A stretch of DNA of 64,000 bases, from positions 14,120 through 78,119 of the forward strand of contig JAKQQL010000474.1 of assembly GCA_029564175.1 (NCBI GenBank), given 5' to 3'. Every line of letters begins with the position of its first letter. Position 1 is the stretch's first letter. The translations under genes were made by a program, and so were the position numbers. The notes beneath the pieces are model-generated. The model did not search any database and was not told where the DNA came from. It saw only the letters and a program-made list of their open reading frames with translations. The stretch comes from Candidatus Cloacimonadota bacterium. Lineage in GTDB: Bacteria > Cloacimonadota > Cloacimonadia > Cloacimonadales > WRIO01. Shown here one piece after another: positions 8,706 through 54,390 of this stretch.

Positions 8706-9335
8706 TTGCCAAATTTTTATGGTGTCTACGTTGGGAAAGTAGAAGACAACGAAGACCCTCTTAAAATAGGAAGATTGAAAGTAAGAGTGCCTTCCATATT
8801 TGGTGAAGAATCAGAAATACCAACAGATAAATTACCTTGGGCTGATCCAAATTTTCCTTATGGTGGTTCTGATGATGTTGGATTCTTTTTTGTTCCTGAA
8901 AAGGAAGCCACTGTTAATGTTCTCTTTATTGGGGGAGATTCTAATAAACCTGTTTGGATAGGGTGTAATTATTCTCAATTTGAAACTTATGGAACGCCAA
9001 AACCGCCTGGTGAAGCGATGAGTAAATATCCAAAAAGAAAAGTTCTTAAAACAAAAGCTGGATATATTTGTTTTGATGATGAAGAAAAAAGTATTACAAT
9101 CAAATCAGGTGGGAATAGTTCTTATTTTGGTATGTCTGAAAGAGAAATCGAAATTGTTCATGCTTCAGGAGCACATGCCACTATTAAACAAGATGGATCA
9201 ATTGCAATGGAATCTCCAGAACAAATTAGACAACGTGATCCAAATACAAAAGCTCAATGGAATCTCATAAAACAAATTTGTCAGAAATTGGATATTCCAA
9301 CGTCTTCTGCTGAACCATTTAAGGCCAAGACTTGA
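8706..9335 (+). CDS. Baseplate spike protein, gpV / gp5 OB-fold type (N-terminal part if the TGA codons are decoded)
   Basis: GVYVGKVEDNEDPLKIGRLKVRVPSIFGEE...LPWADP matches the P2 gpV / Mu gp45 / T4 gp5 N-terminal signature. TTG start 6 nt after AGGTGA. Ends at TGA 9333-9335. Confidence 0.8.
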   Translation: MPNFYGVYVGKVEDNEDPLKIGRLKVRVPSIFGEESEIPTDKLPWADPNFPYGGSDDVGFFFVPEKEATVNVLFIGGDSNKPVWIGCNYSQFETYGTPKPPGEAMSKYPKRKVLKTKAGYICFDDEEKSITIKSGGNSSYFGMSEREIEIVHASGAHATIKQDGSIAMESPEQIRQRDPNTKAQWNLIKQICQKLDIPTSSAEPFKAKT

Positions 9336-9542
9336 GGGGGCCCAAAAAGCACACCAAGCTGTAAAACCGAAATGCCTAAACCTATTAAATTTACAGGTGG
9401 GTGAGGGGGTTCACCGGGGCAAGTCTTGCCCAATACTGGTGGCGGTTGACCGGCTGGTGGCGTATCCTCTGGATGGGGATATCCAAATGCACCAGAAATT
9501 CCAAAAGGAATTGCAGATAAATCTCAAGAATTAGTAAAAAAT

Positions 9543-33642: not shown

Positions 33643-34719
33643 ATGAGTAATAGTAATGGATTCTTAGAATTAACAGATTTTAATTATTATAATATGATGA
33701 GACTGGGGCAGGCGAACTCCATCTGCAACAGGCGGGTGCATGCGCCGGCGCAGGTGTTCGGCGTTATGGACACAGGGACGCGCAGCGTCAACGGAGCCGG
33801 TTTGGAGTGGATCGACGAAAACGGAAACATCATCACGCTGACCAAGGCGGACTTCGACGCACACCCCGCATTCAACTTCCCAGAGGTAATTGTGGGCGGA
33901 AACAGTTTCCGAAGCATTCCCATCGCCTACTGGAAGCGCGGCATAGGGCCGATCGGAAGCCACGCGGCTGGCAAATGGTGTATGTGGATCTCCGACGTTC
34001 CCCTCGACGGCTTCACCGCGAATCCGGGGGCGTTTAAGAGAAATGGGTCATGGCTCGATCGGTTCTTGTTGGGAACCTACAGGGCATTCAATAACGGCGG
34101 CGCGCCCGGTAGTCAGCCGGGAAAAACGCATTGGGGCAACGTGAGTTGGCAGGCGTTTAAAGACGCGGCCGCTGGGATCGGCGAAGGTCATCACATGATC
34201 AGTCTCCAGGAATGGCACGAGATCCTCGGCAGAGCCGTAATTGAGCAAAAAACCTTCCAGCTCGTACCGGAGGCAAGCCGCCAGAACGCTTCGCTGTGCA
34301 AGTATAGAGGCATAGAAGAATTTGCGTTTGACGGCTCGTACGGCTCGACGCACGCCGAATGGATGGACGGTGCGCGAACAGACGCAAGTGGGAAGTACGA
34401 GCTTTGGACTGAAGCAGGCGGGGATTACTCCTCGACCGGAGTGACGTGCCCGCAGGACAGCGCGAGCGAAGCGACCTACTACAATCAAGGGCTTGTCACC
34501 GGCGGACTTTTCGATCATCTTTTCCTTGGGGCCTCCCTCGGTCCGGCATCTACGAGCTTTATCCCGGACTTCTCTGGGCGGAATCCGGGGCTCGTCGGCC
34601 GCATTTGCCGCTCGCACTTCTACGTCGGTCACGCGAGCAACGGTGCTTTCCACTCGTACTTCAGCGACTTGCCGTCGCTCGTCGACGCGAAGATCGGGTC
34701 CCGCCTCGCGAAGTGGTAA
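33643..34719 (+). CDS. GC-rich C-type-lectin/FGE-fold-like receptor-binding tip protein (foreign composition)
   Basis: 358 aa. The first ~19 codons are AT-rich and the rest is about 60-65% GC with high GC3. GNVSWQAFKDAAAGIGEGHHMISLQEWHEI resembles the CLec/FGE core (vsW.dA...c...g..Lpt..EW). The C-terminus ...NGAFHSYFSDLPSLVDAKIGSRLAKW resembles the IGFRLA-type ending of Mtd/DGR-target-like lectin folds. Confidence 0.6.
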   Translation: MSNSNGFLELTDFNYYNMMRLGQANSICNRRVHAPAQVFGVMDTGTRSVNGAGLEWIDENGNIITLTKADFDAHPAFNFPEVIVGGNSFRSIPIAYWKRGIGPIGSHAAGKWCMWISDVPLDGFTANPGAFKRNGSWLDRFLLGTYRAFNNGGAPGSQPGKTHWGNVSWQAFKDAAAGIGEGHHMISLQEWHEILGRAVIEQKTFQLVPEASRQNASLCKYRGIEEFAFDGSYGSTHAEWMDGARTDASGKYELWTEAGGDYSSTGVTCPQDSASEATYYNQGLVTGGLFDHLFLGASLGPASTSFIPDFSGRNPGLVGRICRSHFYVGHASNGAFHSYFSDLPSLVDAKIGSRLAKW

Positions 34720-34983
34720 TTCGGCCTTGGGATCTCGACTTTCTTTCCACCATTCTGCCGCTCGTCGTACATGAGATTGGACATTGGCTCGTGGCCCGGA
34801 CACAGGCTGTGCTTCCATTTCGGTTGGGGCGCCTGCTCGGCGTGAGGCCTGCCACGTGTCCTGTGGACGATGCCGCCATGACCGTCACAGACGTGGAAGC
34901 GATGCATACAGCGGGGCACAATCATATAAGTAATATAAAAATTTATAATTTTAACGAACGGGAAAACTACCACATTTTGGCAC

Positions 34984-35220
34984 GTGAGTACATCTCCAGT
35001 GGCGGCCACAGTCTGGCTATCTGTTTATCGGGCTACGACATTCGCCACAAACAAGGTTCGATTACAAACAAGAAATGCATACCCCGAGTGGCGGTTTATA
35101 AATGCAGAATTGTCAGTGAGTGTAAATACGACAAATGGCATAGATGGTGATTGGATTACTATAAAAACAGGTATATCCATGAATGCGACGGCTGGTGGAT
35201 GGATTGATATAGACATTTGA
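34984..35220 (+). pseudogene. Discoidin (F5/8 type C)-like domain fragment, possible gene remnant
   Basis: 78 aa from a GTG with no clear SD. VWLSVYRATTFATNKVRLQTRNAYPEWRFINAELSVSVNTTNGIDGDWITIKTG looks like the C-terminal two thirds of a galactose-binding-like domain. Intermediate GC (hand counts 55% falling to 43%). Confidence 0.35.
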
Positions 35221-40394: not shown

Positions 40395-40397
40395 TAG

Positions 40398-40428
40398 AAG
40401 ACGGCTCAATGAGCCGTCTTTTTATTTT
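40398..40428 (+). terminator. Rho-independent terminator
   Basis: Perfect 10-bp stem AAGACGGCTC / GAGCCGTCTT with loop AAT, followed by TTTATTTT. Confidence 0.8.
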
Positions 40429-40475: not shown

Positions 40476-42617
40476 ATGTTATGGATTAGTCTATTTGTTG
40501 TTATTAGTATTGTGTTGTTTATCTTTCTAATTATTTTAAATGTGGGGAATATACAAAAGACCAATCATAAAATAGATGATTTAGAACAACTTGAAAAGAA
40601 AAAACTTGAAATGAAAGAATTAGAAGACCATCTTAAAAAATTAGCTGAAATCAATATATCTTACTCTAAAGAATTGGATACATTTACTGAATTTCATGAA
40701 ACCGTTTTAAAAAAATCATCTGATTTAGAGTTGCAATTCAAAACTCTTTTTAATAATTCTCCAATTGGAATATGCCGAGTGTCTATAAGTGGAAAATATA
40801 TTTACGCAAATTCTGCTTTAGCTAGAATGTTAGGCTATTTTGATGCCACTGAATTGACAAGTCTTGTTCAGAATACATCAGAACAAATATTTATGTTTCC
40901 AGATGAACGAAAAAGAGTTATTAAAAAACTTTCCATTAAACCTTATGAACCAGTTTTAATTGAACATGAATTAAAAAAGAAAAATGGAACTTCCATATTT
41001 ACAAGATGCAAGTATATGGGAGTATTAAATGAAAGAGAACAATTATCTTATATGGATGTTATAATAGAAGATATTTCTGATTTAAAGAAAAAAGAACAAG
41101 AGTTATATGATCAAAATGACATGATCATGGAATTATTAAAAGAACAACAAGAAATGAATGATCATTTAGACAAACAGGTTAAAGAGAGAACAAAAGAATT
41201 AGAGAAAAAGAGATATGAATTAGAAAAGATGAATCATGAATTATTAAAAATGAAAAATCTTTTTGAGAACATGTATAAGAAAGCTCCAATTGGATTATTT
41301 AGATCAAGTATTTCAACTGGCAAATTTCTTTCTTGCAATGATGCAACTGCTCATATATTTGATGTAAGAAATGCTGACGAATTTCTTAAAATAGTTAATG
41401 CTTTAGATATTTGGGGAAATAAAAAAAGAAGAGATGAATTAATAGAACATTTTAAAAATCTTCCTTCAATGACTACCTATAATCATATTGATTATTGCCA
41501 AACACCAATATCTAAAAAAGAAAGATATGTATCTGTTTCAGAACTTGCCAATTTTGATGATGATTATTTTGAAGGAGCATTTATTGATGTCACGGAAGAG
41601 TATTTAGCTAAAAAGAAACTGGAAGAAATGAATAAAAATTTAGCTAAAATTGTTAATGAAAGAACACACAATCTAATTGAACAATATGCTTATACTCAAC
41701 AATTAATATCAGAATTGGAAGAATCAAATAATCTTCTCAAAATAAAAACAAATAATCTTGAATTAAATCAATTAAAATTAAAATCTATCATAAAAACAAT
41801 TCCTGACAGTATTATTGTTTGCAAAATAAATGGTAAAATAACCGAATCATATAATATTCCAATGAATTTATTTCATGGGGATCCAATCGATTCAATTTTA
41901 TCTTTATTCAATTTAGATAATTCTTCTTATTTAATAAAATGTTTTGAAAAAATTATTCAAGAACATCATCCTGAAATTCAAAGTGGTATGATAAAAGAAT
42001 TATTTAATAATCAAATCAGTTGGTTTGAATATAATATTTTTAAAATGAATTCCGATCATGTTATTTTAGTTTTTAGAGATATTACTTCGAGAATGCAGAC
42101 AAAAACATTATTAGATTCAATATTACAGTCAACACAGATTCTTTTAACTAAGAAGCCTTTTGAATGTGCTTTGTATGAATCTCTTGAATGGTTTGGTAAA
42201 CTCAACAATGTTCAACGGGTATTTGTTTATAAAAATGAGGAAGATTCCTATATGAGTTCATTGGTATCAGAATATCATGAAGACCATCTTTTTGATTTAA
42301 ACAAAGATCAAAATAGACAATTGGATTATCTAAAAATGTCTAATGACCTTTCAATTTATAATCAATTAAAACAGGGGAAATGTGTTGAATTTATTATGAA
42401 AAATGAAGACCATGAAAAAATTCCAATAGTTGAGAGATTGAAACATAAAGGAGTTAAATCTATTTTATGTGTTCCTATTATTTTTCAATTGGATTTCTTA
42501 GGATATTTAGGAATTAGTGATTATGTATCAGATAGGATTTGGTCAGAGACTGAAAAACAAACATTATTGACATTTGCAACTAACATTGGTTTGATGATGG
42601 AAAAGGAGAATTTTTGA
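40476..42617 (+). CDS. Membrane-anchored PAS-PAS-PAS-GAF sensor-like protein without output domain
   Basis: 713 aa. N-terminal TM LWISLFVVISIVLFIFLIILNV. PAS-like starts FNNSPIGICRVSISGKYIYANSALARMLGY, YKKAPIGLFRSSISTGKFLSCNDATAHIF and IIKTIPDSIIVCKINGKITE, separated by coiled coils. GAF-like C-terminus (VQRVFVYKNEE...VKSILCVPIIFQLDFLGYLGISD...WSETEKQTLLTFATNIG). No H-box kinase, GGDEF, EAL or HTH seen. Confidence 0.65.
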   Translation: MLWISLFVVISIVLFIFLIILNVGNIQKTNHKIDDLEQLEKKKLEMKELEDHLKKLAEINISYSKELDTFTEFHETVLKKSSDLELQFKTLFNNSPIGICRVSISGKYIYANSALARMLGYFDATELTSLVQNTSEQIFMFPDERKRVIKKLSIKPYEPVLIEHELKKKNGTSIFTRCKYMGVLNEREQLSYMDVIIEDISDLKKKEQELYDQNDMIMELLKEQQEMNDHLDKQVKERTKELEKKRYELEKMNHELLKMKNLFENMYKKAPIGLFRSSISTGKFLSCNDATAHIFDVRNADEFLKIVNALDIWGNKKRRDELIEHFKNLPSMTTYNHIDYCQTPISKKERYVSVSELANFDDDYFEGAFIDVTEEYLAKKKLEEMNKNLAKIVNERTHNLIEQYAYTQQLISELEESNNLLKIKTNNLELNQLKLKSIIKTIPDSIIVCKINGKITESYNIPMNLFHGDPIDSILSLFNLDNSSYLIKCFEKIIQEHHPEIQSGMIKELFNNQISWFEYNIFKMNSDHVILVFRDITSRMQTKTLLDSILQSTQILLTKKPFECALYESLEWFGKLNNVQRVFVYKNEEDSYMSSLVSEYHEDHLFDLNKDQNRQLDYLKMSNDLSIYNQLKQGKCVEFIMKNEDHEKIPIVERLKHKGVKSILCVPIIFQLDFLGYLGISDYVSDRIWSETEKQTLLTFATNIGLMMEKENF

Positions 42618-43672
42618 TGAAATGTTGTAAACATCTAACAATTAGACAAAAATTATATTTTAGTTTGGTATTTACTTTTTTCATTTCATTCTTGTTAATC
42701 TTTGTTATTGGAAATCTTTATATTGAATTATCCTTTAAAGAATCTGATGAAAAATTACTTCAAAAAGAAATGAATTTGGCATCTCTTATCATTGGAAATT
42801 TTCAAGATAAAATTGATAGTTTTGTATATGATTATGCGCATTGGGAAGAAACATATAAATATACTTCTAATGATAATAAAGAATTTGTTAATAGGGAATT
42901 GTTAAATAATTTTACTATTTCATCAAATTATATTGACATATTACAAATCATTTCTGTGAATGGAGATATTCTTTTTCAATATGATTACACAATATTGAAA
43001 ACTGGAATACCAAAAGAATTCTTAACAGTTAATAAACAATTCATTAATAATAAAAACGATAGTTCTATTTCTGGATATTATTTTGTGGAATCAAGAAATG
43101 AAATGTATTATATTGTTTCATATCCAATTGTTTGCCCAAAACATAAAGAATATCCAACTAAAGCTAGTTTGGTTGGTATTGGTAAATTGAATTGGAATAA
43201 AATATTTCCAAGAGGCTTTTCACTTTTTGATTCAACAATTGATTTTCAATTTAAACCTCCATTTGATTTGAAACAAAACATGAAAATTCAAAATACACAA
43301 GGTCAATTATTTTCAGAATATATTTTAAAAGATGTTCAGGATAGACCCGTTGGTAAAATTCAATTAACAAAATCATTTGAAATCAAAAATACTTTAGATT
43401 CATTTTTTACCTTAATAATGTTTATTTTCTTAATAGTTTTTATTTTTTTTCTAACACTTCTTTTTTACTTTTTCATTTCCATTTTTAGGAAAATTAATCA
43501 GGTTTGTCTCATCATATATGAAATTAATAATATGGGATCATTAGATGAAATTGAAAATCTAAATATTCAAGAAAAACAATGTCAGTTCGACAATAAAAAT
43601 GAATTTGAATTTTTAGATTGCCAACTTTATAAAATGATTAATAAATATTTCAATAAGGGAAGACATATCTAA
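42617..43672 (+). CDS. Two-TM protein with CHASE4-like extracytoplasmic domain
   Basis: ATG overlaps the upstream TGA (TGATGA). TM1 LYFSLVFTFFISFLLIFVIGNLYI and TM2 FFTLIMFIFLIVFIFFLTLLFYFFISIF. DYAHWEETYKYTSNDNKEFVNRELL resembles the CHASE4 D-[YW]-[AS]-x-W-D-[DE]-T-Y motif (from memory). Short cytoplasmic tail only. Confidence 0.45.
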   Translation: MKCCKHLTIRQKLYFSLVFTFFISFLLIFVIGNLYIELSFKESDEKLLQKEMNLASLIIGNFQDKIDSFVYDYAHWEETYKYTSNDNKEFVNRELLNNFTISSNYIDILQIISVNGDILFQYDYTILKTGIPKEFLTVNKQFINNKNDSSISGYYFVESRNEMYYIVSYPIVCPKHKEYPTKASLVGIGKLNWNKIFPRGFSLFDSTIDFQFKPPFDLKQNMKIQNTQGQLFSEYILKDVQDRPVGKIQLTKSFEIKNTLDSFFTLIMFIFLIVFIFFLTLLFYFFISIFRKINQVCLIIYEINNMGSLDEIENLNIQEKQCQFDNKNEFEFLDCQLYKMINKYFNKGRHI

Positions 43673-43673
43673 A

Positions 43674-44465
43674 ATGAGCGATAGATTTTGGGAATTTTTA
43701 GAAACGGTTCTTAAAAAGGATAAGGATGTTTTTCTAGCGATAATCTTTTTGGCAATCCCCCTTGGTTTATTAGGTTTTGGGATTATTACACCTGATCATT
43801 TTTTCAGTTTAGAAAAACCAGTCATAATCTTTTTTATCATATCATTTATTCTAATACTATTCTTTTTCATTTTCGTTAGAATAAATAAAATTTTAAAAGT
43901 TGTTGGAGAAGGTTCATCATCAAGTCGAGCCTCATCACCTGAATATACACAAATTGTACAATTAATGACTGAAATCTCAAAATACTTAAATGATCGACAT
44001 GATGAAAATTTAAAATTGGTCACACAAATGATTCAAGTTCAACAGGCTCTTAAAAAGATGCCTAGTAAAAAACAAATCATTATGATGGTCGAATATGGAT
44101 TAATGACACTAACATTTAACCTAATAGAAACCTTAATAGCTTTTTCAAGACAAAATGTGAATCTTATACAAAATCAAAATACTCAACAAAATTTAATTCG
44201 AAAAGCAGAATTAGACATTAGTGATGCAAAAAATGAATTTTTAAAAATCATTAATGTTCATTTAAACAGGTTGGTATCACCTGAAATATATTCACAAATG
44301 GAATATGAATTAGATCAATATTTAACGGACACTGTTAGAATTATTTTACGTGATCAAGCAAATCTTGAAGATAAAATTATAAATATCAATCTTCTTGCAA
44401 GAACTCTCTCAAACAATATTTTAGGTTTAATTGCAAATAATTTGAAATGGCCTGACGAGGATTGA
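43674..44465 (+). CDS. Membrane protein (two N-terminal TM segments) with helical cytoplasmic domain
   Basis: 263 aa. FLAIIFLAIPLGLLGFGIIT and VIIFFIISFILILFFFIFV. 1-nt gap from the upstream stop. Confidence 0.55.
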   Translation: MSDRFWEFLETVLKKDKDVFLAIIFLAIPLGLLGFGIITPDHFFSLEKPVIIFFIISFILILFFFIFVRINKILKVVGEGSSSSRASSPEYTQIVQLMTEISKYLNDRHDENLKLVTQMIQVQQALKKMPSKKQIIMMVEYGLMTLTFNLIETLIAFSRQNVNLIQNQNTQQNLIRKAELDISDAKNEFLKIINVHLNRLVSPEIYSQMEYELDQYLTDTVRIILRDQANLEDKIININLLARTLSNNILGLIANNLKWPDED

Positions 44466-45481
44466 TGGTTATGACTTCGACAAATTTATTAATAATCTTG
44501 TGTGTTGTAATAATTGTTCTTTTAATTATTGGCTATAATTCCAATGAAGACAATAATTTTAACAAAAAGAAAAAGAACATTGAGGAAAAAAAGAAAAGAA
44601 AGGATGACCTCAATGTTATTAAGAACCTAACAAAAGAAATAGCTCAAAAGGATGAACAATCAACTCAATTAATTCAAGAATTTCTCAAAAGAGAAACTGC
44701 TTCAATCATAATGAGTGAAGAGAAAAATAGATTTTACGAATCAATTATGGATCACACATCTTCACCAATTTATGTTCAGGATATGAAAGGAAAATTTATT
44801 TTAATAAATAAAGCTTTTACAGAAATGTTTAAAATAAATAAATCAGAACTTGATCTACAAAAATATAACAATACTAATTTTCTAAATAGGCTTCTTACGG
44901 ATTTTGACATGCATGAAAATCTTTTGTCTGATGCTTTTGTATTTGATTATAAAGAACCAACTTCTTGTTTATTTCAATTGACAAATGGAAAGGTTATTAC
45001 CATTAAAAAAACCTATTATCAAAATTCTGTGATGGAATCTTTTCTAATTGGTATTATTAGTGATATTTCAGAACTACACAAAGAAAAGGAAGCTGTTTCT
45101 TATGAAAAGAATATGTTAGAACTGATTCTAGATTCATTACCATTACCAATTTTCGTGACAGATGAAAACCTCATTGTTCTTAAAGTTAATAAAACACTGT
45201 GTGAATTATTTGGAAAAGAAAAGTCTGATTTCATCAATACGAAATATTGTTGTAAAGATATGTTTCAGTGTGGCCAATGTAATCCTTGCCAAATTGATGA
45301 AAAACAAGAATTTTCTGAGAAGATATTTTTAAATGGTCAATTAATAGAACAAAAGAGATATGTTATTATTATTAGTAAAGCATTTTTATTGAATGAAAAC
45401 AAACATTTTGTAATTTCAATGTTTGATAAAAAACACGAGTATGGACTTTTTCAGAATTGCGGTGATTCAAACCATGATTAA
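44465..45481 (+). CDS. Membrane-anchored double-PAS protein with Cys cluster
   Basis: ATG overlaps the upstream TGA (an alternative ATG is at 44471). TM LLIILCVVIIVLLIIG. PAS-like FYESIMDHTSSPIYVQDMKGKFILINKAFTEMF and MLELILDSLPLPIFVTDENLIVLKVNKTLCELFG. Cys cluster KYCCKDMFQCGQCNPC. Confidence 0.6.
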   Translation: MVMTSTNLLIILCVVIIVLLIIGYNSNEDNNFNKKKKNIEEKKKRKDDLNVIKNLTKEIAQKDEQSTQLIQEFLKRETASIIMSEEKNRFYESIMDHTSSPIYVQDMKGKFILINKAFTEMFKINKSELDLQKYNNTNFLNRLLTDFDMHENLLSDAFVFDYKEPTSCLFQLTNGKVITIKKTYYQNSVMESFLIGIISDISELHKEKEAVSYEKNMLELILDSLPLPIFVTDENLIVLKVNKTLCELFGKEKSDFINTKYCCKDMFQCGQCNPCQIDEKQEFSEKIFLNGQLIEQKRYVIIISKAFLLNENKHFVISMFDKKHEYGLFQNCGDSNHD

Positions 45482-46085: not shown

Positions 46086-46415
46086 ATGGCAGATTTTAAA
46101 CTAGAATTACTTGTTCAAGTAGCATTAAATCAAGAATCAACTGTTTTATATACTGTTCCAAATGGAAAAACCTGTATTATAACAGAATGTATTTTATGTA
46201 ATACTTCACCGAATGATGTAAATATTTATCAGTCTTTCGTTAAAAGGGCTGAAGGACTTAGCACTAAAAATACAATTATTAAAGATTTAACCCTTAAACC
46301 AAATGAAACTTATCGAATGACATTTAGCACATTTCTTGCCCCATATACGACAATTAGAATGCATGCAACAGAAGAGAATGTTGTCTCTTGCCAAATATCT
46401 GGAGTTCTGATATAA
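46086..46415 (+). CDS. Small beta-rich hypothetical protein
   Basis: 109 aa. LYTVPNGKTCIITECILCNTSPNDVNIY. Tightly packed in the operon. Confidence 0.6.
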   Translation: MADFKLELLVQVALNQESTVLYTVPNGKTCIITECILCNTSPNDVNIYQSFVKRAEGLSTKNTIIKDLTLKPNETYRMTFSTFLAPYTTIRMHATEENVVSCQISGVLI

Positions 46416-46430
46416 TAGGGAAGGCATAAT

Positions 46431-46727
46431 ATGTTTAGGTCAATAAATCAAAGATTATCAAATGATACAACAAGATTACAAGAACCTATTGTTATTGATC
46501 AAAATGTTCAGGGGATTAAAAAAGGTAATGGTTTGTTTGCTGGAAATAATTTAGAAACTGTAATTGCACATGGTTTGGGATATGCCCCAAAATACGTAAA
46601 TGTAATTCCAATAAATAATCCTCAAGGGACTTTGGGCGAAATATGGACACGAATGGATCAAACAAATATTTATGTTGGGAATACTGGAACATTTACAGGT
46701 CAATTTGTTTGGATTGTAATTAAATAG
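46431..46727 (+). CDS. Small beta-rich hypothetical protein
   Basis: 98 aa. VIAHGLGYAPKYVNVIP...NIYVGNTGTFTGQFVWIVIK. SD GGGAAGG. Confidence 0.6.
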   Translation: MFRSINQRLSNDTTRLQEPIVIDQNVQGIKKGNGLFAGNNLETVIAHGLGYAPKYVNVIPINNPQGTLGEIWTRMDQTNIYVGNTGTFTGQFVWIVIK

Positions 46728-46742
46728 AAGGAGTAGGATGAA

Positions 46743-48251
46743 ATGGATTTATCCACAGTTGAAAAAATATATCAACAAGATTATAAATCAGTTCCAATTA
46801 TGAATTCGACATATATTATTACTGGTAAATGTAGTCTTGCATGTAAATATTGTTTTGAGAGAGGTATGCCTGCTTCAAAAAGAAAGGACATGTCCAGTCA
46901 AGTAGCTATTCAAGGAATGGAATTTCTTTTTGAAAATTCAAAACATATGCCAAATAATAGATCAATTTCAATTATGTTGTTCGGCGGAGAACCAACAATG
47001 AATCCACGAACAATTATTAGTCTAATAAATCATTATAAAAATAATATTAAACCAAGATATCCAAATAGAAATTTTAGCATGAATATTATCACGAATTGTT
47101 GTCAATTATCAGATGAACTTTATAATTGTTTTCTTGAGAATGCACAATTAATAAATCTTTCTTGCCAGGTGTCAATTGATGGCATGCCAGAGATTCAAGA
47201 TTTAAATAGAATACAGCCAAATGGAAAAGGTTCTTCTCATTTAATTCCAGATACATTAAATAAATGGAAACATATTTTTAAACATGATCCAAAACGATTG
47301 AATGTTCATGGGTGTTGCTCACCTGAAACCATTTCTTATTTATATGAAAATTATTGTTATTTTAAAGATGTTTATGGAATTTCCCAAATTTGGTTTTTAC
47401 CAGTTCCAGAATTGGATTGGAAACCAGAACATGTAAAGATTTATGATGAACAAATGAATAAAATTTACCATGATGTTCTCAATGACGTTAAAAAAACTGG
47501 CGATGTTAATCAAGCATTCTGTTATGCTCCTTTAGATAGATTTATGTCATGTGATTTTCCAGATAAACCTTGTGGAGCTGGAACAGATTATTGCACAATA
47601 ACACAAGATGGAGATTTATTTCCTTGCCATCAACTTTATTTTTGTGATAAAGAAAATGAGACATGCATGGGAAATATTTGGGATGGTGTTGATGATGACA
47701 AAAGAAGAATCTTTTTAGAGTATGATAGTTTTGATTTAACCTGTCCATCTTCATGTGATCATGGAGCTTGTTATAGATGTTTTGCTTCCAATTATCAAAA
47801 TCGTGGATCAATGTTATCTCAAATAAGAGGATATTATTGTTCGATGATGAAAATAGATCAGAAATATGAAAGAATGTTAAAGGAGGAACTTTTTAAAATG
47901 GGACTATTAAATGGAGAAAATATGAACCACAATCCAAATTGTCTATGTGATTCTCGTGGCGATCAAAATGTTTGCCATAAAGAATGTAATGGAGAATGCC
48001 AGGGGGAATGTGGCAATGAATATTGCCAAGATGGTTGCCACGATTGCCATTGCGGAAGTGAAGATCAACATATTAAATCTCAATGGCAAGATAAAGTTTG
48101 TAATTCTGAATTTGAAATAGATACATTTACTGATGAACAGGGTAATGAAATTACAATTAAGAGGCGAAAGAAACAAACCAATATTGATGAAGCTATTAAT
48201 ATTTTGTCTCAAGCATTCAGTGAAGTTATTAAATTACTTCAACAGAGGTAA
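46743..48251 (+). CDS. Radical SAM enzyme with SPASM/twitch-like auxiliary Fe-S domain and Cys/His-rich C-terminal tail
   Basis: 502 aa. CSLACKYC (CX3CX2C, nt 46830-46853), LFGGEPTMNP, auxiliary clusters CGAGTDYCTITQDGDLFPC and CPSSCDHGACYRC. Tail NCLCDSRGDQNVCHKECNGECQGECGNEYCQDGCHDCHCG. SD AAGGAG 9 nt upstream. Confidence 0.8.
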   Translation: MDLSTVEKIYQQDYKSVPIMNSTYIITGKCSLACKYCFERGMPASKRKDMSSQVAIQGMEFLFENSKHMPNNRSISIMLFGGEPTMNPRTIISLINHYKNNIKPRYPNRNFSMNIITNCCQLSDELYNCFLENAQLINLSCQVSIDGMPEIQDLNRIQPNGKGSSHLIPDTLNKWKHIFKHDPKRLNVHGCCSPETISYLYENYCYFKDVYGISQIWFLPVPELDWKPEHVKIYDEQMNKIYHDVLNDVKKTGDVNQAFCYAPLDRFMSCDFPDKPCGAGTDYCTITQDGDLFPCHQLYFCDKENETCMGNIWDGVDDDKRRIFLEYDSFDLTCPSSCDHGACYRCFASNYQNRGSMLSQIRGYYCSMMKIDQKYERMLKEELFKMGLLNGENMNHNPNCLCDSRGDQNVCHKECNGECQGECGNEYCQDGCHDCHCGSEDQHIKSQWQDKVCNSEFEIDTFTDEQGNEITIKRRKKQTNIDEAINILSQAFSEVIKLLQQR

Positions 48252-48258
48252 TTTTTAA

Positions 48259-49167
48259 ATGATGAAACGAGTTGAAACGTATGTTGTATATGTATCCGGC
48301 AGATGTAATTGCAATTGTCATTATTGTTATCTTAAAACTGGTGGGTTGAACCCAAAACTCGATTATGATTTTGATACAGATATTAAACCATTATTGGACA
48401 ACATCAAGAAATCTACTGAACCATTTGTAATTGAATTTCTTGGTGGTGATCCGATTGTAGATGACTTATCTGTTTTAAATTTAATCAAAACGGTTAATTA
48501 TTTTCCAACTGGTCAGCCTTTCATTATTACAACAAATGGAACAAGGTTGCCAAATGAAATACTCGAATTGTTAAAATCAAATCCAAATATTTATTGGGCG
48601 GCTTCAATGGATGGAACAAAGTGGGCTAATCAATTGAGAATTACCAAAGATGGATATAATACTTATGATTTGGTAATGGAAAATATTAAGACTCTTAAAA
48701 TGAATAATATTCCTGATAAACAAATTGGCATTCACTTAATTACACATCCTTATAATATTGCTTTTCTGGAACAAAGTATTGATCATCTTTACAAAAAAGG
48801 CATTAGAAATTTTGGAATTGGAACAGTAGAATCTACCATGAAGATAGGATATGAATATTGTTCTAGATTCATATATGAATTGAATCAAGTTTCTACCAAT
48901 ATTTGCAATGGTAAATATCCTGAAATTGGTATTGATTTATTTAATGGTATTAAACCAAGAGAAGATATCAGGCAATATATACACGATGGTAATGGAAATA
49001 TTATTGGTGAATCTTATGGAAGAAATAAAGATGATTTTACACAAACTGATACTTTTAATGTTCAAAAATGTGATAATACAAAGAGAAATTTAATTCAAGA
49101 AATTCGTGAAGAAGTCTATTGGAATCATCAAGATAATCTCAAAAAGAGGCTCTTTCATAATAAATAG
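48259..49167 (+). CDS. Radical SAM enzyme (single-domain)
   Basis: 302 aa. VYVSGRCNCNCHYCY (CX3CX2C) and FLGGDPIV (SAM-binding GGE-like motif). No SPASM-like C-terminus. Confidence 0.7.
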   Translation: MMKRVETYVVYVSGRCNCNCHYCYLKTGGLNPKLDYDFDTDIKPLLDNIKKSTEPFVIEFLGGDPIVDDLSVLNLIKTVNYFPTGQPFIITTNGTRLPNEILELLKSNPNIYWAASMDGTKWANQLRITKDGYNTYDLVMENIKTLKMNNIPDKQIGIHLITHPYNIAFLEQSIDHLYKKGIRNFGIGTVESTMKIGYEYCSRFIYELNQVSTNICNGKYPEIGIDLFNGIKPREDIRQYIHDGNGNIIGESYGRNKDDFTQTDTFNVQKCDNTKRNLIQEIREEVYWNHQDNLKKRLFHNK

Positions 49168-49178
49168 GGTGAATTTTA

Positions 49179-50432
49179 ATGGCAATTTTAATAGCAAATG
49201 AATTTTTTCTAAAACAAATTTTAGAAATGGCCAAAAGAAGAAAAGGACATACCATTTCGGATATAGATAACCAATGGGAGTCTTTGGATAAATTAAAAAA
49301 CCTAATAAATAATATGGTTCAAAATAGAATTCAAACACAAGATATCTGTCATTGCAATGTTAGAACATCTTCATGTGATTGTTTTAATAGAAGTTCAACA
49401 GTTTCAACATGTCTTTGTAATTTAAGAACAGTTGGATGTGAATGTCAGGGGCGAATTATGGTTTGCCCCTCTCATTCACCAACACCATATTCTAATACTT
49501 CTATTAGTTTAAAAGAATTGCAAGATAAGGTAAAATCATTAAGAGGTCAAACATTGAATAATTATCCATATCCCGGATGTTCTTGCCAAAATAGAACCAG
49601 CGACCCTATTTGCACTTGTCAAACTCGAACTGGAACATGTAATTGTGTTTCTCGAACACCGTCTGCAGATATATGCATTTGTAATATTTATGCGTGTGTT
49701 TGTGTTTCTAGAACAAGTGTGCCGGGGCAATGGGGAGAACAATGTTATGAATATGCTCCAAGATATAAAGATTGGCCAACCAATTTTCCATCTGGAGGAA
49801 ATCAAGGATGGGATAGTTCTTGGACTGTTAGTGGACAATATATTTATGATGTTTGTCAATGTAAGGTTCGGACTATCCATCAACATGCATGTCATTGCAA
49901 TTACAGAACTGGATTATGTCATGCTGTATCGACATGCCCATCAGACAATATTAATGTTCCAGGTAGCACTTATTGTCAGTGTAATTGTTATCAATGGCCA
50001 AGTGGGCCACATTGTGAGTGTAAGTATCGTGTAAGTGGGTGTAGAGAACAAGAAAGATGCACGTGCAATATGAGATCACCCTGTTCAAAAGATTTAAAAT
50101 TTCCAGGCACTGCAAGTCAGATCTGTTTAGTTTCCCCCTCGGCAACTTGCACAAATAGGTCGTATGATGGTGCACCATCATGCCCAAGTTTTATGCCAAC
50201 TGGAACAGGTATTGGCGGATCAGATGATGAAGCATCTTCTATGTGTAATACAGTTTCAAATAATAGTCCACGATGTGATTGCCAGTCAAGAACTCCAACA
50301 ACACCAGTTTGTAATTGCAACTTACAAAATCCATGTGATTGTGTTTCAAGAACTTATACTGATCCACATATATGCAATACGAGATGTGGATGCAATGTTG
50401 TTTCAACATATGATACCATTATTAATGATTAA
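49179..50432 (+). CDS. Cys-rich CxCxxR[TS]-repeat protein, candidate radical-SAM substrate
   Basis: 417 aa. Cys-free helical N-terminus of 56 aa, then CHCNVRT, CDCFNRS, CLCNLRT, CSCQNRT, CTCQTRT, CNCVSRT, CVCVSRT, CQCKVRT, CHCNYRT, CECKYRV, CTCNMRS, CDCQSRT, CDCVSRT and others. SD GGGTGA. Followed by a terminator. Confidence 0.75.
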   Translation: MAILIANEFFLKQILEMAKRRKGHTISDIDNQWESLDKLKNLINNMVQNRIQTQDICHCNVRTSSCDCFNRSSTVSTCLCNLRTVGCECQGRIMVCPSHSPTPYSNTSISLKELQDKVKSLRGQTLNNYPYPGCSCQNRTSDPICTCQTRTGTCNCVSRTPSADICICNIYACVCVSRTSVPGQWGEQCYEYAPRYKDWPTNFPSGGNQGWDSSWTVSGQYIYDVCQCKVRTIHQHACHCNYRTGLCHAVSTCPSDNINVPGSTYCQCNCYQWPSGPHCECKYRVSGCREQERCTCNMRSPCSKDLKFPGTASQICLVSPSATCTNRSYDGAPSCPSFMPTGTGIGGSDDEASSMCNTVSNNSPRCDCQSRTPTTPVCNCNLQNPCDCVSRTYTDPHICNTRCGCNVVSTYDTIIND

Positions 50433-50440
50433 ACAACTTA

Positions 50441-50476
50441 AATTAGGCTAGGATAATTTCTAGCCTAATTTTTTAT
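50441..50476 (+). terminator. Rho-independent terminator
   Basis: 10-bp stem AATTAGGCTA / TAGCCTAATT with a 10-nt loop, followed by TTTTATATTT. Confidence 0.75.
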
Positions 50477-52419: not shown

Positions 52420-54390
52420 ATGGCCAATGGAACTTTAATATTGGGGAGATTTACAGTTTTTCATGTCGGACACTATTCACTAATTAAGAATGCTAAGAAA
52501 AAATATCCAGAAAACGAATTGGTTCTAGCTGTTGTATATGGTGAAAAATCATCTAAAGATGTTTCTAAAAATCCAACTTCTTTTGAGGAACGTGAAAGAA
52601 TCATTACAAAAACATTAAATAAAAATGGTATGCACCCGTATATACTAGAAGCTAAAACAGGGTATATACCAAAAATGATTACGGATATCAAAGAGAAATT
52701 TGATATTGATATTACTGTCATTTATTGTGGCACAGATAGACTTTCTACATATCAGAATCAATTAGATAAAGCTCAAATGGGAAATATTAAACTAGAAGAA
52801 GTAAAAAGAGATTTGGATACTGATTTATCAAAAGTAGAATCAAAAGAAGAATTAACAAAAAAGGCTTCTGCTACAGAAGTTAGAAAATCTGTTTCAAACA
52901 ATGATTTTGAAAATTTTAGCTCCTTAATGCCAGAAGGATTAGATACTGATGACATGAAGGATATCTGGAATATTATGAGAACAGCCTTTAAAGAAAAGGG
53001 TTTGATTAATCATATTCTTGTTTCTGGTATTACTCATTTGGAAGACCTTGATATTGATGAATTCATTCATTTTGTAGAAAACTTCTATTCTGAAAATATT
53101 GTTAAGATTCAAAAACTTGACGGAACTTTCAATATGTCAATTGTCAAAGAAAATGGAAAGATTCAATATAAGAGACTAGCTAAGAAACAAGATGAACCAT
53201 TTACGGCAGATTCATTACCTGAAAATCCTATTTATAATGCTCTTCGTTCTGCCTGTCTTGCTTGTGATTTTATTCAGAATACTCTTGACTTTCTTTTGAG
53301 TGATGGGGATGCTGTTGATTGTGAGGTTCTTTATTCTTCACAGCCAAATACTGTGGCATACAATTTAGATAAAAACTATCTGGCTTTCCTCCGAATGCTC
53401 CAAGGAGACCAGTCAAAAATTGAAAAACTCCGTGAAAACCTTCAAGGAAATACCGTCTCGGTCAGGACACCGACCTATTTCTATAATTGGGATACAAATA
53501 CTATTGAAATGAAAAATCAAGAAGATATTTGGGCCTTTACAACTCCACAAGTCATCACACAAGTTGAAGGGGAACAAACGGATCAATTAGAAATTTTGAA
53601 ACAGTGGTTAGAAAATCAAAATGATATTCTTCCTGATAAGACAAATTTTGATGTTATGAAATTGTCTTTGGTTGGTCTGAATAAAGATACTAAACAACAA
53701 TATAAATCAGCTAGGGAATCTGCTTTAGAAGAAGCTCGAAAGATGAAGATCAATATTAAACAACATCTTGTGGAAAATGTTCTAAAGAAAATGAATTTTG
53801 ATTTAGGTGGAACAAATCAAGAAGGTATTGTTTTACGTGATGATGAATTGAAACTCATCACAAAATTAATTGATAGAGAAGGATTTACCAAGACAAATAA
53901 ACTAAATTGGAAATATATTGAAATGTCTACAAAGGGAATTAAATTGGATGATGGAACATGGTTGACAGGAGTAATGGCACAATTAAATGAAAATATTTCA
54001 AATACCTTTAATGTTCCTATGTTGAAAAATCCAAGTCAATTTGTTCGATATTGCAAAAATCAAACTGATTTAAATTCTAATATTCTTGCTGTTTCAAGAT
54101 TTGTTGAATCAAGTATTGATACTAACAATAGTAATTCAAAACTATTATTAATCAATAATTCTATTCGTAATGCTAAATTACAGATTAAAGAATTATTGGA
54201 TGAATCAAAAATTGATGATAATCTTTCTCCAAGAATGAAAGAAAGAACTAGTGATAGTTTGGGGATGGTATTTAATAAATTGAATGACCTATCCTCTTTT
54301 ATAGGAGACTTGGTATCAAAACAAGATATGACTGATAATGCTAGAATAACAGCTTTCTTAATTGCCTTCATTAATGTTGAGGATGAATAA
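52420..54390 (+). CDS. Fusion protein: NMN adenylyltransferase-like nucleotidyltransferase + RNA/DNA ligase-like domain
   Basis: 656 aa. N-terminal GRFTVFHVGH (HxGH) and SATEVR (ISxTxxR-like) as in NadM/NadR-type NMNAT. Ligase-like motif I QKLDGTFN (K232, nt 53113-53124), possible motif III AVDCEVLY, motif IV NQEGIVLRD and motif V KLITKLIDR. Confidence 0.5.
   Translation: MANGTLILGRFTVFHVGHYSLIKNAKKKYPENELVLAVVYGEKSSKDVSKNPTSFEERERIITKTLNKNGMHPYILEAKTGYIPKMITDIKEKFDIDITVIYCGTDRLSTYQNQLDKAQMGNIKLEEVKRDLDTDLSKVESKEELTKKASATEVRKSVSNNDFENFSSLMPEGLDTDDMKDIWNIMRTAFKEKGLINHILVSGITHLEDLDIDEFIHFVENFYSENIVKIQKLDGTFNMSIVKENGKIQYKRLAKKQDEPFTADSLPENPIYNALRSACLACDFIQNTLDFLLSDGDAVDCEVLYSSQPNTVAYNLDKNYLAFLRMLQGDQSKIEKLRENLQGNTVSVRTPTYFYNWDTNTIEMKNQEDIWAFTTPQVITQVEGEQTDQLEILKQWLENQNDILPDKTNFDVMKLSLVGLNKDTKQQYKSARESALEEARKMKINIKQHLVENVLKKMNFDLGGTNQEGIVLRDDELKLITKLIDREGFTKTNKLNWKYIEMSTKGIKLDDGTWLTGVMAQLNENISNTFNVPMLKNPSQFVRYCKNQTDLNSNILAVSRFVESSIDTNNSNSKLLLINNSIRNAKLQIKELLDESKIDDNLSPRMKERTSDSLGMVFNKLNDLSSFIGDLVSKQDMTDNARITAFLIAFINVEDE

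Follow-up and report, generated by a model that had tools for sequence, protein, structure and literature searches.

Does a large phage use radical-SAM enzymes, of the kind that mature peptide antibiotics, to modify one of its own proteins? The question is raised by a 64,000-nucleotide stretch of DNA (hereafter, the window) from the Candidatus Cloacimonadota bacterium assembly GCA_029564175.1 (contig JAKQQL010000474.1, positions 14,120 to 78,119 of the forward strand), in which a preliminary description, based on the sequence alone, identified two radical-SAM genes directly upstream of an open reading frame rich in cysteine repeats. The analysis described below confirmed this observation, as all three open reading frames exist on the + strand, and identified a fourth partner that had been missed. 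The features of the cassette are as follows.

46388..46416 (+), a promoter-like site (TTGCCA-17-TATAAT with an extended -10 TG) just upstream of the cassette.
46431..46727 (+), a 98-aa ORF whose residues 29-98 form a ~68-aa tail-protein C-terminal domain, the fourth conserved component.
46743..48251 (+), rSAM-1, a radical-SAM/SPASM maturase of 502 aa without an RRE domain.
46830..46853 (+), the CX3CX2C motif of rSAM-1 (CSLACKYC; C30, C34, C37).
47571..47840 (+), the SPASM-type region of rSAM-1: C277-x12-G-x4-C295, then C334-x3-C338-x4-C343-x2-C346, then C366.
47940..47960 (+), a substrate-like motif, C-L-C-D-S-R-G (aa 400-406), in the Cys-rich C-terminal tail of rSAM-1.
48259..49167 (+), rSAM-2, a SPASM-less radical-SAM enzyme of 302 aa from an unnamed family.
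49179..50432 (+), the CxCxxR[T]-repeat protein of 417 aa, the presumed substrate.
49179..49346 (+), the Cys-free N-terminal helical domain of this protein (aa 1-56), which together with a ‘C-P-S-H...helix’ element at aa 96-120 forms the conserved leader-like or docking domain.
49347..50393 (+), the repeat region with 14 C-x-C-x-x-R units, interrupted by Cys-poor loops (e.g., aa 190-225) and ending in the family's C-terminal ‘R-C-x-C-N-V-V..Y’ motif.
50440..50471 (+), an intrinsic terminator (14-bp stem followed by a T-run) that closes the cassette directly after the substrate gene.

The promoter-like site is an 11/12 match and one of the three best in 17.5 kb, but this is weak evidence, as the total count of promoter-like sites is not above the shuffle expectation.

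What is the Cys-rich protein? Its gene starts 11 nt after the rSAM-2 stop codon and encodes 48 Cys in 417 residues (11.5%, against 1.5% for the long + strand ORFs of the window), with 14 strict C-x-C-x-x-R units, 12 of which are followed by T or S. In 20,000 shuffles of the protein, such units occurred 0.31 times on average and at most four times. Tandem Repeats Finder detected no repeat in the DNA, so the array is kept at the protein level. The protein belongs to an unmodelled family with no Pfam, NCBIfam, PHROG, or PDB match, and only three homologs were found among 5.8e9 proteins and 20 among 1.84e9 representatives. The conserved N-terminal domain is the best-conserved part of the family, and AF2 predicts helices at residues 2-21, 36-52, and 111-120 with block pLDDT of about 62-87, while the rest of the protein is below 50. 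Across 436 units of the family, C1, C3, and R6 define the repeat, T7 is 61% conserved (some units have C, S, G, or I there), and positions 1/3/5/7 are C/C/small/T, consistent with one face of a β-strand, although the absence of a confident predicted fold for the repeat region makes this picture weak. The preliminary description held that position 4 of the unit is mostly N/D, which is incorrect: in the window, this position is N4, Q4, V3, K2, and F1, and never D, while across the family it is N24/Q19/V18/D15/E10 %.

What are the two enzymes? rSAM-1 carries the CX3CX2C motif, invariant in 13 aligned orthologs, GGEP at residues 81-84, and 33 Cys in total, including a C-terminal cluster. Of its SPASM-type ligands, C277, C295, C338, C343, C346, and C366 are invariant in the same 13 orthologs, C334 is at least 90% conserved, and the G-x4-C signature is retained, although the Pfam SPASM model did not report the window protein and gave only a faint hit on the ortholog from locus L005 (related loci are numbered L003 to L186 here). 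The top NCBIfam matches of rSAM-1 are all Cys-thioether maturases, namely PapB (156 bits, profile positions 6-325 of 330, cut-off 340), SCIFF (110 bits), ScfB-like (105 bits), the CXXX-repeat family (103 bits), and QhpD (99 bits), whereas cyclophane and darobactin-type families score 54 bits or less. The best PDB match is CteB (5WGG) at E 1e-23, with the alignment starting at CteB residue 89. The substrate-like motif in its tail lies within a segment, ‘GNNP.N..CLCD[SC]RG’, conserved in most orthologs, and a similar Cys-plus-helix tail is found on rSAM-2 in another subgroup.

rSAM-2 has the same catalytic core, with CNCNCHYC at C16/C20/C23 and GGDP at residues 62-65, but only three other Cys and no auxiliary-cluster domain. 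It matches Pfam Radical_SAM at 48 bits and the PapB profile, its best-scoring family, only at positions 6-194 of 330. Its unnamed family comprises about 120 proteins (118 homologs with E<1e-10, about 295 aa long), in which C16/C20/C23 and the GGxP motif are invariant and no other Cys is conserved. Its AF2 model has a pLDDT of 93.5, and the top Foldseek matches are CteB, anSME, ChlB, SuiB, and SkfB. Both enzymes fall among the Cys-directed peptide and protein maturases, and CteB is the best solved relative for both by sequence and by fold, but only the first has a SPASM-type Cys set, and the two are not equivalent ‘twins’, as they had been called. Matches to QueE, activases, anSME, and viperin are all weak, so the outcome that had been named in advance as refuting the maturase reading does not occur. 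However, every family score is far below its curated cut-off, neither enzyme is a member, by score, of any named family, and the reaction type is only extrapolated.

Are the enzymes and the Cys-rich protein functionally linked? We examined about 28 related loci from phages and prophages of anaerobes, some of them near-duplicates. All 17 loci with a full-length rSAM-2 ortholog have a CxCxxR protein, and 13 of 13 with upstream DNA have rSAM-1; three more loci add to this, as do eight found starting from the tail domain. The three genes co-occur in every informative related locus, although the order varies between rSAM1-rSAM2-substrate and rSAM1-substrate-rSAM2, and two loci, L004 and L009, carry two substrate genes. 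This link is much stronger than could be inferred from the window alone. The named hosts are Clostridium, Vallitalea, Thermoanaerobacterales, and Dethiothermospora, which are strict anaerobes, suiting oxygen-labile radical-SAM enzymes.

Where does the cassette belong in the phage? A local HMM found the ~68-aa domain at the C-terminus of a tail or tail-fiber protein next to the rSAM genes in 15 sources counting the window (one weak), failing in only one locus with enough flank (L092). The domain itself has no Pfam, PHROG, or PDB match, but it ends a Phage_tail_fib protein in L005, a YomG-like tail protein (YomG_N/Prophage_tail) in L006, and tail-fiber PHROG proteins in L009. In the reverse test, all eight strong C-terminal hits in IMG/VR lie next to the complete trio, while none of the seven weak internal hits do. 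In PBSX-like prophages, the cassette sits where the long tail fiber gene normally lies; for instance, in L169, the order is BaseplateJ, Gp48, a 156-aa domain protein, rSAM-1, the CxCxxR protein, rSAM-2, holin, and amidase, with no long fiber gene called in that interval. No isolated, proteomically characterized phage was found to carry the system, so that virion incorporation is inferred from gene context alone, and no fusion of a CxCxxR array to a fiber protein was found. Between the window and L003, two near-identical phages, the Cys-rich gene has a dN/dS of 1.47, against 0-0.21 in nine neighbors, with no change in any motif Cys or Arg; changes cluster in the loop at residues 201-210 and at residues 3-8. 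This estimate rests on only 25 substitutions, partly in two patches that could be small recombination tracts.

Taken together, we favor, as somewhat more likely than not, a model in which window positions 46431-50432 are a four-gene cassette that produces and matures a tail-fiber-associated protein. In this view, the 417-aa repeat protein is a protein-sized substrate whose conserved N-terminal three-helix domain, and possibly its conserved C-terminal motif, would serve for recognition by the enzymes and/or for docking. rSAM-1, a PapB/CteB/QhpD-like enzyme with a complete SPASM Cys set, would act repeatedly along the array and most likely link Cys sulfur to a side-chain carbon of a nearby residue, forming a thioether. 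Thr7 is the only conserved acceptor candidate, and C3 to T7 has the same i,i+4 spacing as PapB's CX3D, whereas N/D at position 4 is not conserved and is unlikely to be the universal acceptor. rSAM-2, catalytically intact by sequence but lacking an auxiliary cluster, would perform a second reaction on the same protein, probably of different chemistry. The product would be a redox-insensitive, heavily stapled module that joins the virion by docking onto the ~68-aa domain of the neighboring tail or tail-fiber protein, with its Cys-poor loops as the variable, host-facing parts. The analysis itself establishes the sequence features, the family placement of both enzymes, the co-occurrence of the four components (with L092 lacking a detectable tail domain), the tail-module context, and the atypical evolutionary rate; that the Cys-rich protein is the substrate, the thioether chemistry and its acceptor, the activity of rSAM-2, and the virion location are inferred, and no chemistry was observed. 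The earlier interpretation, that these enzymes install intramolecular crosslinks (or another Cys-directed modification) on a protein-sized substrate in a phage late operon, is supported in part; the tie of the four-gene cassette to tail-fiber proteins points to a virion component rather than a free RiPP. No prior description of such a system was found; if confirmed, it would extend peptide-antibiotic-style chemistry to a probable phage structural protein.

Which other explanations survive? The strongest, though unlikely, is that the Cys-rich protein is a giant multi-core RiPP precursor with a true N-terminal leader, each unit being modified and the product cut into small thioether peptides released at lysis as an antimicrobial or signaling cargo outside the virion. 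The enzymes are closest to RiPP maturases, a conserved N-terminal domain with hypervariable repeats is the classic leader/core pattern, L004 and L009 have two precursor genes, some loci have extra tailoring rSAMs, L006 has an adjacent, weak C39-like peptidase, which fits a cleaved-peptide model, and in the window the gene lies directly before the lysis genes. On the other hand, no peptidase or transporter family was detected among the genes examined beside the cassette in the window or in L005, L168, L169, or L170, although several neighbors have no family match, so that this result does not extend to immunity genes. On inspection of the family sequences, no GG-type or other regular cleavage site is evident at the leader/repeat junction, and the proteins are 168-538 aa long with irregular Cys-poor inserts and a conserved C-terminal motif, unlike concatenated cores. 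The strict linkage to a tail-protein C-terminal domain has no role in this model.

Less likely still, the protein is the substrate but the chemistry is not crosslinking: one or both enzymes might oxidize Cys to formylglycine as anSME does, epimerize residues, or modify the invariant Arg, yielding a reactive or protease-resistant fiber. anSME is among the best structural matches of rSAM-2, JGI names several homologs ‘AslB’, C-x-x-R loosely recalls the sulfatase C-x-P-x-R motif, and rSAM-2 lacks the auxiliary clusters that all characterized thioether synthases are known to have. However, the anSME model scores only 41.7 bits (cut-off 349) for rSAM-2 and is not among the 25 listed families for rSAM-1, the motif spacing differs from that of sulfatases, and no sulfatase gene was seen among the annotated window genes around the cassette.

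Similarly doubtful is a C-x-C array that binds metal or Fe-S in a trimeric fiber without covalent crosslinks, analogous to the His-x-His iron sites of the T4 gp37 needle and the P2/phi92 spike tips, with the rSAM enzymes acting on something else, such as the tail-protein domain, or only helping metallate the array. C-x-C places both thiols on one face of a strand, the 8-11-residue period with a 17-19 super-period suits a β-helical fiber, and the tail context fits. Against this, two intact radical-SAM enzymes of the Cys-peptide maturase clade co-occur with the array in every locus and in variable order, the invariant Arg and conserved Thr are not explained by metal binding, and rSAM-1 carries a copy of the unit (CLCDSRG) in its own tail, which suggests that the motif is what the enzyme binds. 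Finally, a non-coding or low-complexity artifact, for which only overlapping ORFs in other frames speak, is effectively refuted by a 51%-identical homolog that keeps the reading frame and the same counts of 48 Cys and 14 units, by more distant members that keep the motif and both conserved termini, by an SD-like site and a terminator, and by the absence of a DNA repeat.

How does the cassette compare with known systems? The PapB/PapA (freyrasin) ranthipeptide system is the best-scoring family for both enzymes, its substrate also has many tandem short Cys units modified in turn, and C3-x-x-R-T7 has the same i,i+4 spacing as PapA's C-x3-D (PMC9413430). Here, however, scores are 156 and 77 bits against a cut-off of 340, the acceptor would be Thr, or something else, rather than Asp or Glu, the substrate is 168-538 aa with two Cys per unit, a second, SPASM-less rSAM is present, and the system sits in a phage tail module with a linked tail-protein domain. 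The CteB/CteA (SCIFF) thioether synthase (PDB 5WGG/5WHY) is the closest solved structure, and the Cys-to-Thr thioether of CteA uses a Thr acceptor, like the conserved T7 here; yet CteB's N-terminal RRE (residues 1 to about 88) is absent from both phage enzymes, the SCIFF model scores 110 bits against a cut-off of 425, and SCIFF peptides are about 45 aa, a genuine one being seen in L186. QhpD/QhpC, which matures the quinohemoprotein amine dehydrogenase gamma-subunit, is the best-known case of a SPASM rSAM installing several Cys thioethers in a polypeptide that stays as a structural subunit of a larger assembly, and it is among the top hits for rSAM-1, but at 98.7 bits against a cut-off of 453; no qhp genes are present, and QhpC has about 4 Cys, no repeats, and Asp and Glu acceptors.

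In the His-Xaa-Ser (HxsA/B/C/D) and CXXX-repeat or Cys-every-fifth (CefA/B) systems predicted from genomes, rSAM maturases are likewise linked to substrates made of very short tandem repeats, and the Hxs system has two paired rSAM genes. HxsB, CefB, and the CXXX-repeat maturase all appear among the hits, but far below their cut-offs and with a different repeat motif; these systems are largely uncharacterized biochemically and are not known to be associated with phages or tails. Lastly, in the metal-stabilized fibers and spikes (T4 gp37 His-x-His iron sites; P2 gpV and phi92 gp138 tips), to which no sequence similarity was found, the location is a tail fiber and a dyad residue motif (X-x-X) recurs along it, whereas here the residues are Cys rather than His, and the motif is accompanied by two radical-SAM enzymes.

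The three open reading frames (ORFs) identified in the preliminary description lie exactly where it placed them, and the observation on which it rested is confirmed. The interpretation that it offered, i.e., that two radical-SAM enzymes install intramolecular crosslinks, or another Cys-directed modification, on a protein-sized substrate in a phage late operon, is supported in part. The cassette comprises four genes, and its features are as follows.

46388-46416, promoter-like site preceding the cassette
46431-46727, 98-aa ORF just upstream of rSAM-1, carrying a ~68-aa domain shared with tail proteins
46743-48251, rSAM-1, a radical-SAM enzyme of 502 aa
47940-47960, motif CLCDSRG (aa 400-406) resembling the putative substrate unit, in the C-terminal tail of rSAM-1
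48259-49167, rSAM-2, a radical-SAM enzyme of 302 aa
49179-50432, CxCxxR-repeat protein of 417 aa, the inferred substrate
50440-50471, strong terminator

The Cys-rich ORF starts 11 nt after the rSAM-2 stop codon and encodes 48 Cys, a Cys-free N-terminus of 56 residues, and 14 strict C-x-C-x-x-R units, 12 of them followed by T or S. Shuffling the protein 20,000 times gave a mean of 0.31 units and a maximum of 4, and there is no tandem repeat at the DNA level, so the array is maintained by selection on the protein. Two details of the preliminary description do not hold. Position 4 of the unit, described there as mostly N or D, is N/Q/V/K/F in the window and never D, and is a mixture of N/Q/V/D/E across the family. 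Likewise, the two enzymes, presented as twins, are not equivalent, as only rSAM-1 has a SPASM-type Cys set.

Both enzymes carry the hallmarks of the radical-SAM superfamily (PF04055). rSAM-1 has the CX3CX2C cluster motif at C30/C34/C37, a GGEP motif, and 33 Cys in total, while rSAM-2 has CX3CX2C at C16/C20/C23, a GGDP motif, and only three further Cys; both sets of motifs are invariant in orthologs. rSAM-2 scores 48.0 against the Pfam gathering threshold of 29.5 for PF04055, whereas rSAM-1 scores 24.5, below that threshold, but reaches 33.5 against 22 for the related Fer4_12 model. Against NCBIfam, rSAM-1 matches the PapB ranthipeptide maturase profile (NF047865) almost end to end (positions 6-325 of 330), with a score of 156.3 bits that is nevertheless far below the equivalog cut-off of 340. 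SCIFF/ScfB, the CXXX-repeat family, QhpD, and the nif11-type maturases follow, every score being far below its curated cut-off, and cyclophane, darobactin, MoaA, viperin, and QueE-type models score much lower. The closest solved structure is the SCIFF thioether synthase CteB (5WGG, E 1e-23), to which the alignment starts at residue 89, so the leader-binding RRE domain is missing.

SPASM-domain enzymes (PF13186/TIGR04085) are characterized by a seven-Cys motif, C-x9-15-G-x4-C ... C-x2-C-x5-C-x3-C ... C, which ligates two auxiliary [4Fe-4S] clusters. In 13 orthologs of rSAM-1, the three cluster Cys, GGEP, C277-x12-G-x4-C295, C338, C343, C346, and C366 are invariant, and C334 is nearly so. The first half of the motif fits, while the second half (C334-x3-C338-x4-C343-x2-C346...C366) has the right number of Cys but non-canonical spacing, and the Pfam SPASM HMM gives no hit on the window protein and only a faint one on the ortholog from L005, one of the related loci retrieved for comparison.

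rSAM-2, in contrast, matches only the N-terminal 194 positions of the PapB profile (76.8 bits) and has no conserved Cys outside the radical-SAM motif. It is predicted with high confidence (pLDDT 93.5) to fold into a maturase-type core whose best structural matches are CteB, anSME, ChlB, SuiB, and SkfB, and it belongs to an unnamed family of at least 118 clusters, each about 295 aa. A search for informative fusions among the long rSAM-2 homologs found an intein insertion, start-codon artifacts, and enzyme-tail extensions, but no fusion to a substrate or a fiber. For instance, in homolog P0044 (431 aa), an intein (PF14890) is inserted inside the CX3CX2C cluster-binding loop, and in homologs P0053 and P0069 (453 and 462 aa) rSAM-2 is fused to an unknown ~170-aa C-terminal domain that begins 'FGCGTGRCGSKSLAK'.

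The C-terminal tail of rSAM-1 carries a conserved copy of the putative substrate unit (GNNP.N..CLCD[SC]RG), in which CLCD[SC]RG is preceded by GNNP and followed by an amphipathic helix. The copy is found in orthologs from loci L005, L006, L008, L093, L095, and L169, and some orthologs have two copies. In another subgroup, a similar Cys-plus-helix tail sits on rSAM-2 instead. The tail is therefore a mobile part of the system, and it could be a pseudo-substrate, a site of self-modification, or a recognition element; that it substitutes for the missing RRE is likewise only an inference.

The Cys-rich protein has no Pfam, NCBIfam, PHROG, or PDB relative, and PDB profile searches for its family and for the ~68-aa domain were uninformative. 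A word-indexed search of 5.8e9 proteins found three homologs, and an exhaustive profile search of 1.84e9 representatives found 20. Members are 168-538 aa long and share three elements: an N-terminal domain, 'LSL..LK...KGGY.I.P...L.DLK.LLN[DN]M...R...C.[SG]H...LSL..(helix)'; a variable number of C-x-C-x-x-R-T units; and a C-terminal 'C.GRC.CN....F' motif. The logo over 436 units is C1-[DSTN]-C3-[NQVDE]-[SNAG]-R6-T7(61%)-[SGA], with a period of 8-11 residues and a second mode at 17-19. Positions 1/3/5/7 (C, C, small, T) and 2/4/6 (polar, polar, R) alternate as they would on the two faces of a β-strand, although this reading is an inference. AlphaFold2 is confident only for helices 2-21, 36-52, and 111-120, and gave no usable model of the repeat region (pLDDT about 30-40).

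We next examined the genomic linkage of these genes. All 17 loci with a full-length rSAM-2 ortholog contain a CxCxxR protein next to it or close by, and all 13 with enough upstream DNA contain an rSAM-1 ortholog. Three further long contigs agree, although some of the loci retrieved are near-duplicates of one another (e.g., L089/L090, L093/L094, and L175-L178). The order is either rSAM1-rSAM2-substrate or rSAM1-substrate-rSAM2, and loci L004 and L009 each carry two putative substrate genes. Some loci add further radical-SAM genes next to the trio, namely a HemN-like enzyme of 329 aa (L168, 10878-11867), a small SPASM/twitch-like enzyme of 325 aa (L170, 6767-7744), and three others in L007 (1841-5624), all of which may add further tailoring steps. 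In L007 (GCA_028693395.1, a contig labeled Nanoarchaeia archaeon), the CxCxxR protein and rSAM-2 lie at the end of a 68-kb contig whose other genes look archaeal (prefoldin, UPF0147, TatA), so the system may also occur in a DPANN archaeon or its provirus, or the contig may be mis-binned. L093/L094 (= L171/L172), contigs of 186 and 230 kb, i.e., of jumbo size, carry at about 850-2830, roughly 4 kb upstream of the main cassette, a second, different radical-SAM enzyme (418 aa) directly followed by another Cys-rich protein (241 aa, 27 Cys, no CxCxxR units). Pairs of a radical-SAM enzyme and a Cys-rich protein may therefore be a broader theme in large phages.

The system was not recovered from known phages. 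Megablast of 16 kb around the cassette and tblastn of the Cys-rich protein and rSAM-2 against 50,697 phage records found nothing, and no isolated phage in INPHARED carries the system. Weaker rSAM-1 hits in phage records proved unrelated: MT835472 carries a classical SCIFF peptide plus ScfB on what looks like a bacterial fragment, the Phass-1 radical-SAM gene lies among replication genes, and the Campylobacter and Erwinia phage enzymes cover only the core. A scan of IMG/VR with rSAM-2 alone found nothing, and an alignment query was needed, while a scan of genome contigs returned mostly generic radical-SAM genes, only L008 and L009 being orthologs.

The 98-aa ORF upstream of rSAM-1 shares a ~68-aa domain ('G.s.FAG...tI.H.L...P...P.G.LGE.W.R.D.TN.YVGN.G...W') with the protein adjacent to the module in nearly every locus, where it always lies at the extreme C-terminus. 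The carriers are a 250-aa Phage_tail_fib protein (L005), a 1022-aa YomG_N/Prophage_tail protein (L006), a 353-aa protein matching many tail-fiber PHROGs (L009), an 881-aa protein with three copies of the domain (L088), and short proteins of 98-278 aa. A word-indexed search with the 98-aa ORF found only near-identical proteins. When IMG/VR was searched starting from the domain, all 8 strong C-terminal hits carried the complete trio, whereas the 7 weak, internal hits in 600-820-aa proteins did not. The cassette is thus encoded in the tail or tail-fiber module and co-inherited with fiber proteins. In two PBSX-like prophages, it lies between Baseplate_J/Gp48 and the XkdX or holin/lysin genes, where the long fiber gene of PBSX normally sits, and in one of them, L169, no long fiber gene is called in that interval. 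In L170, the cassette follows the Phage_fiber_rpt, XkdX, and Laminin_G genes.

In the window, the cassette lies after baseplate and fiber genes (a baseplate wedge, DUF4815, and Laminin_G/F5_F8 proteins) and before the endolysin. The promoter-like site and the terminator bracket the four genes, although the promoter evidence is weak. No Rfam family or tRNA was found in the window. Further upstream, a ~1.2-kb island of 58-60% GC (33750-35000) in a genome of about 30% GC covers most of ORF 33643-34719 (358 aa, weak tail-protein PHROG hits), which lies among tail-fiber genes and may be a recently acquired receptor-binding module. Between 40476 and 46082, just after a terminator at 40396-40422, begins a run of sensor-domain proteins inside a phage late region, which is unusual for a phage: PAS+GAF (40476-42617), CHASE4 (42614-43672), and a membrane protein with two PAS domains (44462-45481), with no output domains detected. 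Four ORFs downstream of the endolysin gene lies a 656-aa protein (52420-54390) with an N-terminal cytidylyltransferase-like domain (PF01467, phrog_395/3041) and a large unknown C-terminal part, which is 99.4% identical in L003, a closely related contig.

By comparing the window with L003, to which it is 96-98% identical, we found that the Cys-rich gene has 21.2 nonsynonymous and 3.8 synonymous differences, giving a dN/dS of 1.47. The nine neighboring genes have dN/dS of 0-0.21, and rSAM-2 is identical in protein sequence. None of the changes affects a motif Cys or Arg; they cluster at residues 3-8 and in the Cys-free loop 201-210. The sample is small, and the clusters could be recombination patches, but even so, the contrast with the neighbors is large and fits an invariant scaffold that displays fast-evolving surface loops.

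The sequence features, genomic linkage, and evolutionary contrast described here are observed directly, whereas the identity of the substrate, the chemistry of both enzymes, and the place of the product in the virion are inferred. That the CxCxxR protein is the substrate of the two enzymes is a strong inference, drawn from the enzyme family and from co-occurrence independent of gene order, and we consider it likely. That rSAM-1 forms thioethers is extrapolated from its nearest families, all of which are Cys-thioether synthases, and is about as likely as not; T7 is the most plausible acceptor, and C3 to T7 has the i,i+4 spacing of PapB. For rSAM-2, the lack of auxiliary clusters argues for chemistry different from that of known thioether synthases. 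That the product is a virion tail-fiber component docking on the ~68-aa domain is inferred from context, domain shuffling, and the evolutionary signature, with the balance of probability again about even.

Of the alternatives, a released multi-core RiPP survives best, though it is unlikely. The conserved N-terminal helical domain followed by variable repeats resembles the leader and core of a ribosomal precursor, modification itself being only inferred. A RiPP is also defined by proteolytic removal of the leader and release or export of a peptide product; no protease or transporter family was detected among the genes examined beside the cassette in the window, and the only protease-like neighbor seen in any locus is a 207-aa protein with a weak Peptidase_C39_2 match (8896-9519) that directly follows rSAM-2 in L006, a Vallitalea prophage. 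Non-cross-linking Cys or Arg chemistry is also unlikely. The families whose assignment had been set beforehand as grounds for refutation, i.e., QueE, the activases, and anSME, were rejected on scores. For the anaerobic sulfatase-maturating enzymes (TIGR03942), rSAM-2 scores 41.7 bits against a cut-off of 349, and the model is not among the 25 families listed for rSAM-1; the unit differs in spacing from the C/S-x-P/A-x-R target motif, and no sulfatase gene was seen in the annotated window genes around the cassette. A role in defense akin to prokaryotic viperins was rejected, as the PADLOC pVip model gives about 39 bits over the radical-SAM core only, and NCBIfam viperin gives 36-38 bits against a cut-off of 180. 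A purely metal-binding fiber is likewise regarded as unlikely, to about the same degree as non-cross-linking chemistry.

A more far-reaching possibility, which we hold only tentatively, is that phages and tail-like particles of anaerobes use two radical-SAM enzymes to staple a Cys-repeat protein into a covalently knotted, disulfide-independent tail-fiber or receptor-binding module, which may even become covalently joined to the conserved C-terminal domain of the fiber protein. As far as we could find, this would be the first radical-SAM post-translational modification of a virus structural protein and the largest ranthipeptide-like substrate known. Radical-SAM/SPASM thioether chemistry is known mainly from small peptides, such as sactipeptides and ranthipeptides, and from one enzyme subunit (QhpC). 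The cassette suggests that the same chemistry is applied dozens of times to proteins of 170-540 residues that belong to phage tail modules in anaerobes, where disulfides cannot stabilize extracellular proteins. If that is right, it defines a new class of post-translationally cross-linked virion proteins; gives two new enzyme subfamilies, one of them lacking an auxiliary cluster, with a simple repeated recognition motif (C-x-C-x-x-R-T) that could be useful for protein stapling; assigns a role to about 120 unnamed rSAM-2 homologs, several of which JGI labels 'AslB'; and identifies a likely host-range determinant, given the fast-evolving loops on an invariant Cys/Arg scaffold. The system is directly testable, because two cultured hosts, Clostridium sp. 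LBM24168 and Vallitalea okinawensis, carry it in prophages, in CP196861 at about 2.09-2.11 Mb and in PQDH01000009, respectively.

We found no curated model for the substrate, the tail domain, or rSAM-2, and full-text searches, which covered only open-access literature, found no description of a phage system pairing radical-SAM enzymes with a Cys-repeat or tail protein. Were the virion role confirmed, the system would come close to a new category. Compared with PapB, whose substrates contain C-x3-[DE] units, the unit here is C-x-C-x-x-R-[T]: the residue four positions after C3 is T in 61% of units and D in 2%, with E not among the seven commonest residues, and four positions after C1 it is S/N/A/G. 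Compared with the SCIFF maturase ScfB/CteB (TIGR03974), rSAM-1 scores 110 bits against a cut-off of 425, lacks the N-terminal RRE domain, and is accompanied by a 417-aa putative substrate, with no ~45-aa SCIFF peptide present. Similarly, the match to QhpD (TIGR03906) reaches only 98.7 bits against a cut-off of 453, and the neighbors are phage tail and lysis genes rather than qhpABC. In summary, the system, on the inferences set out here, works like a ranthipeptide or QhpD-type maturation system, but it is not a member of any named family by score, substrate motif, or domain architecture. It has no RRE, and it has a second, SPASM-less radical-SAM enzyme.
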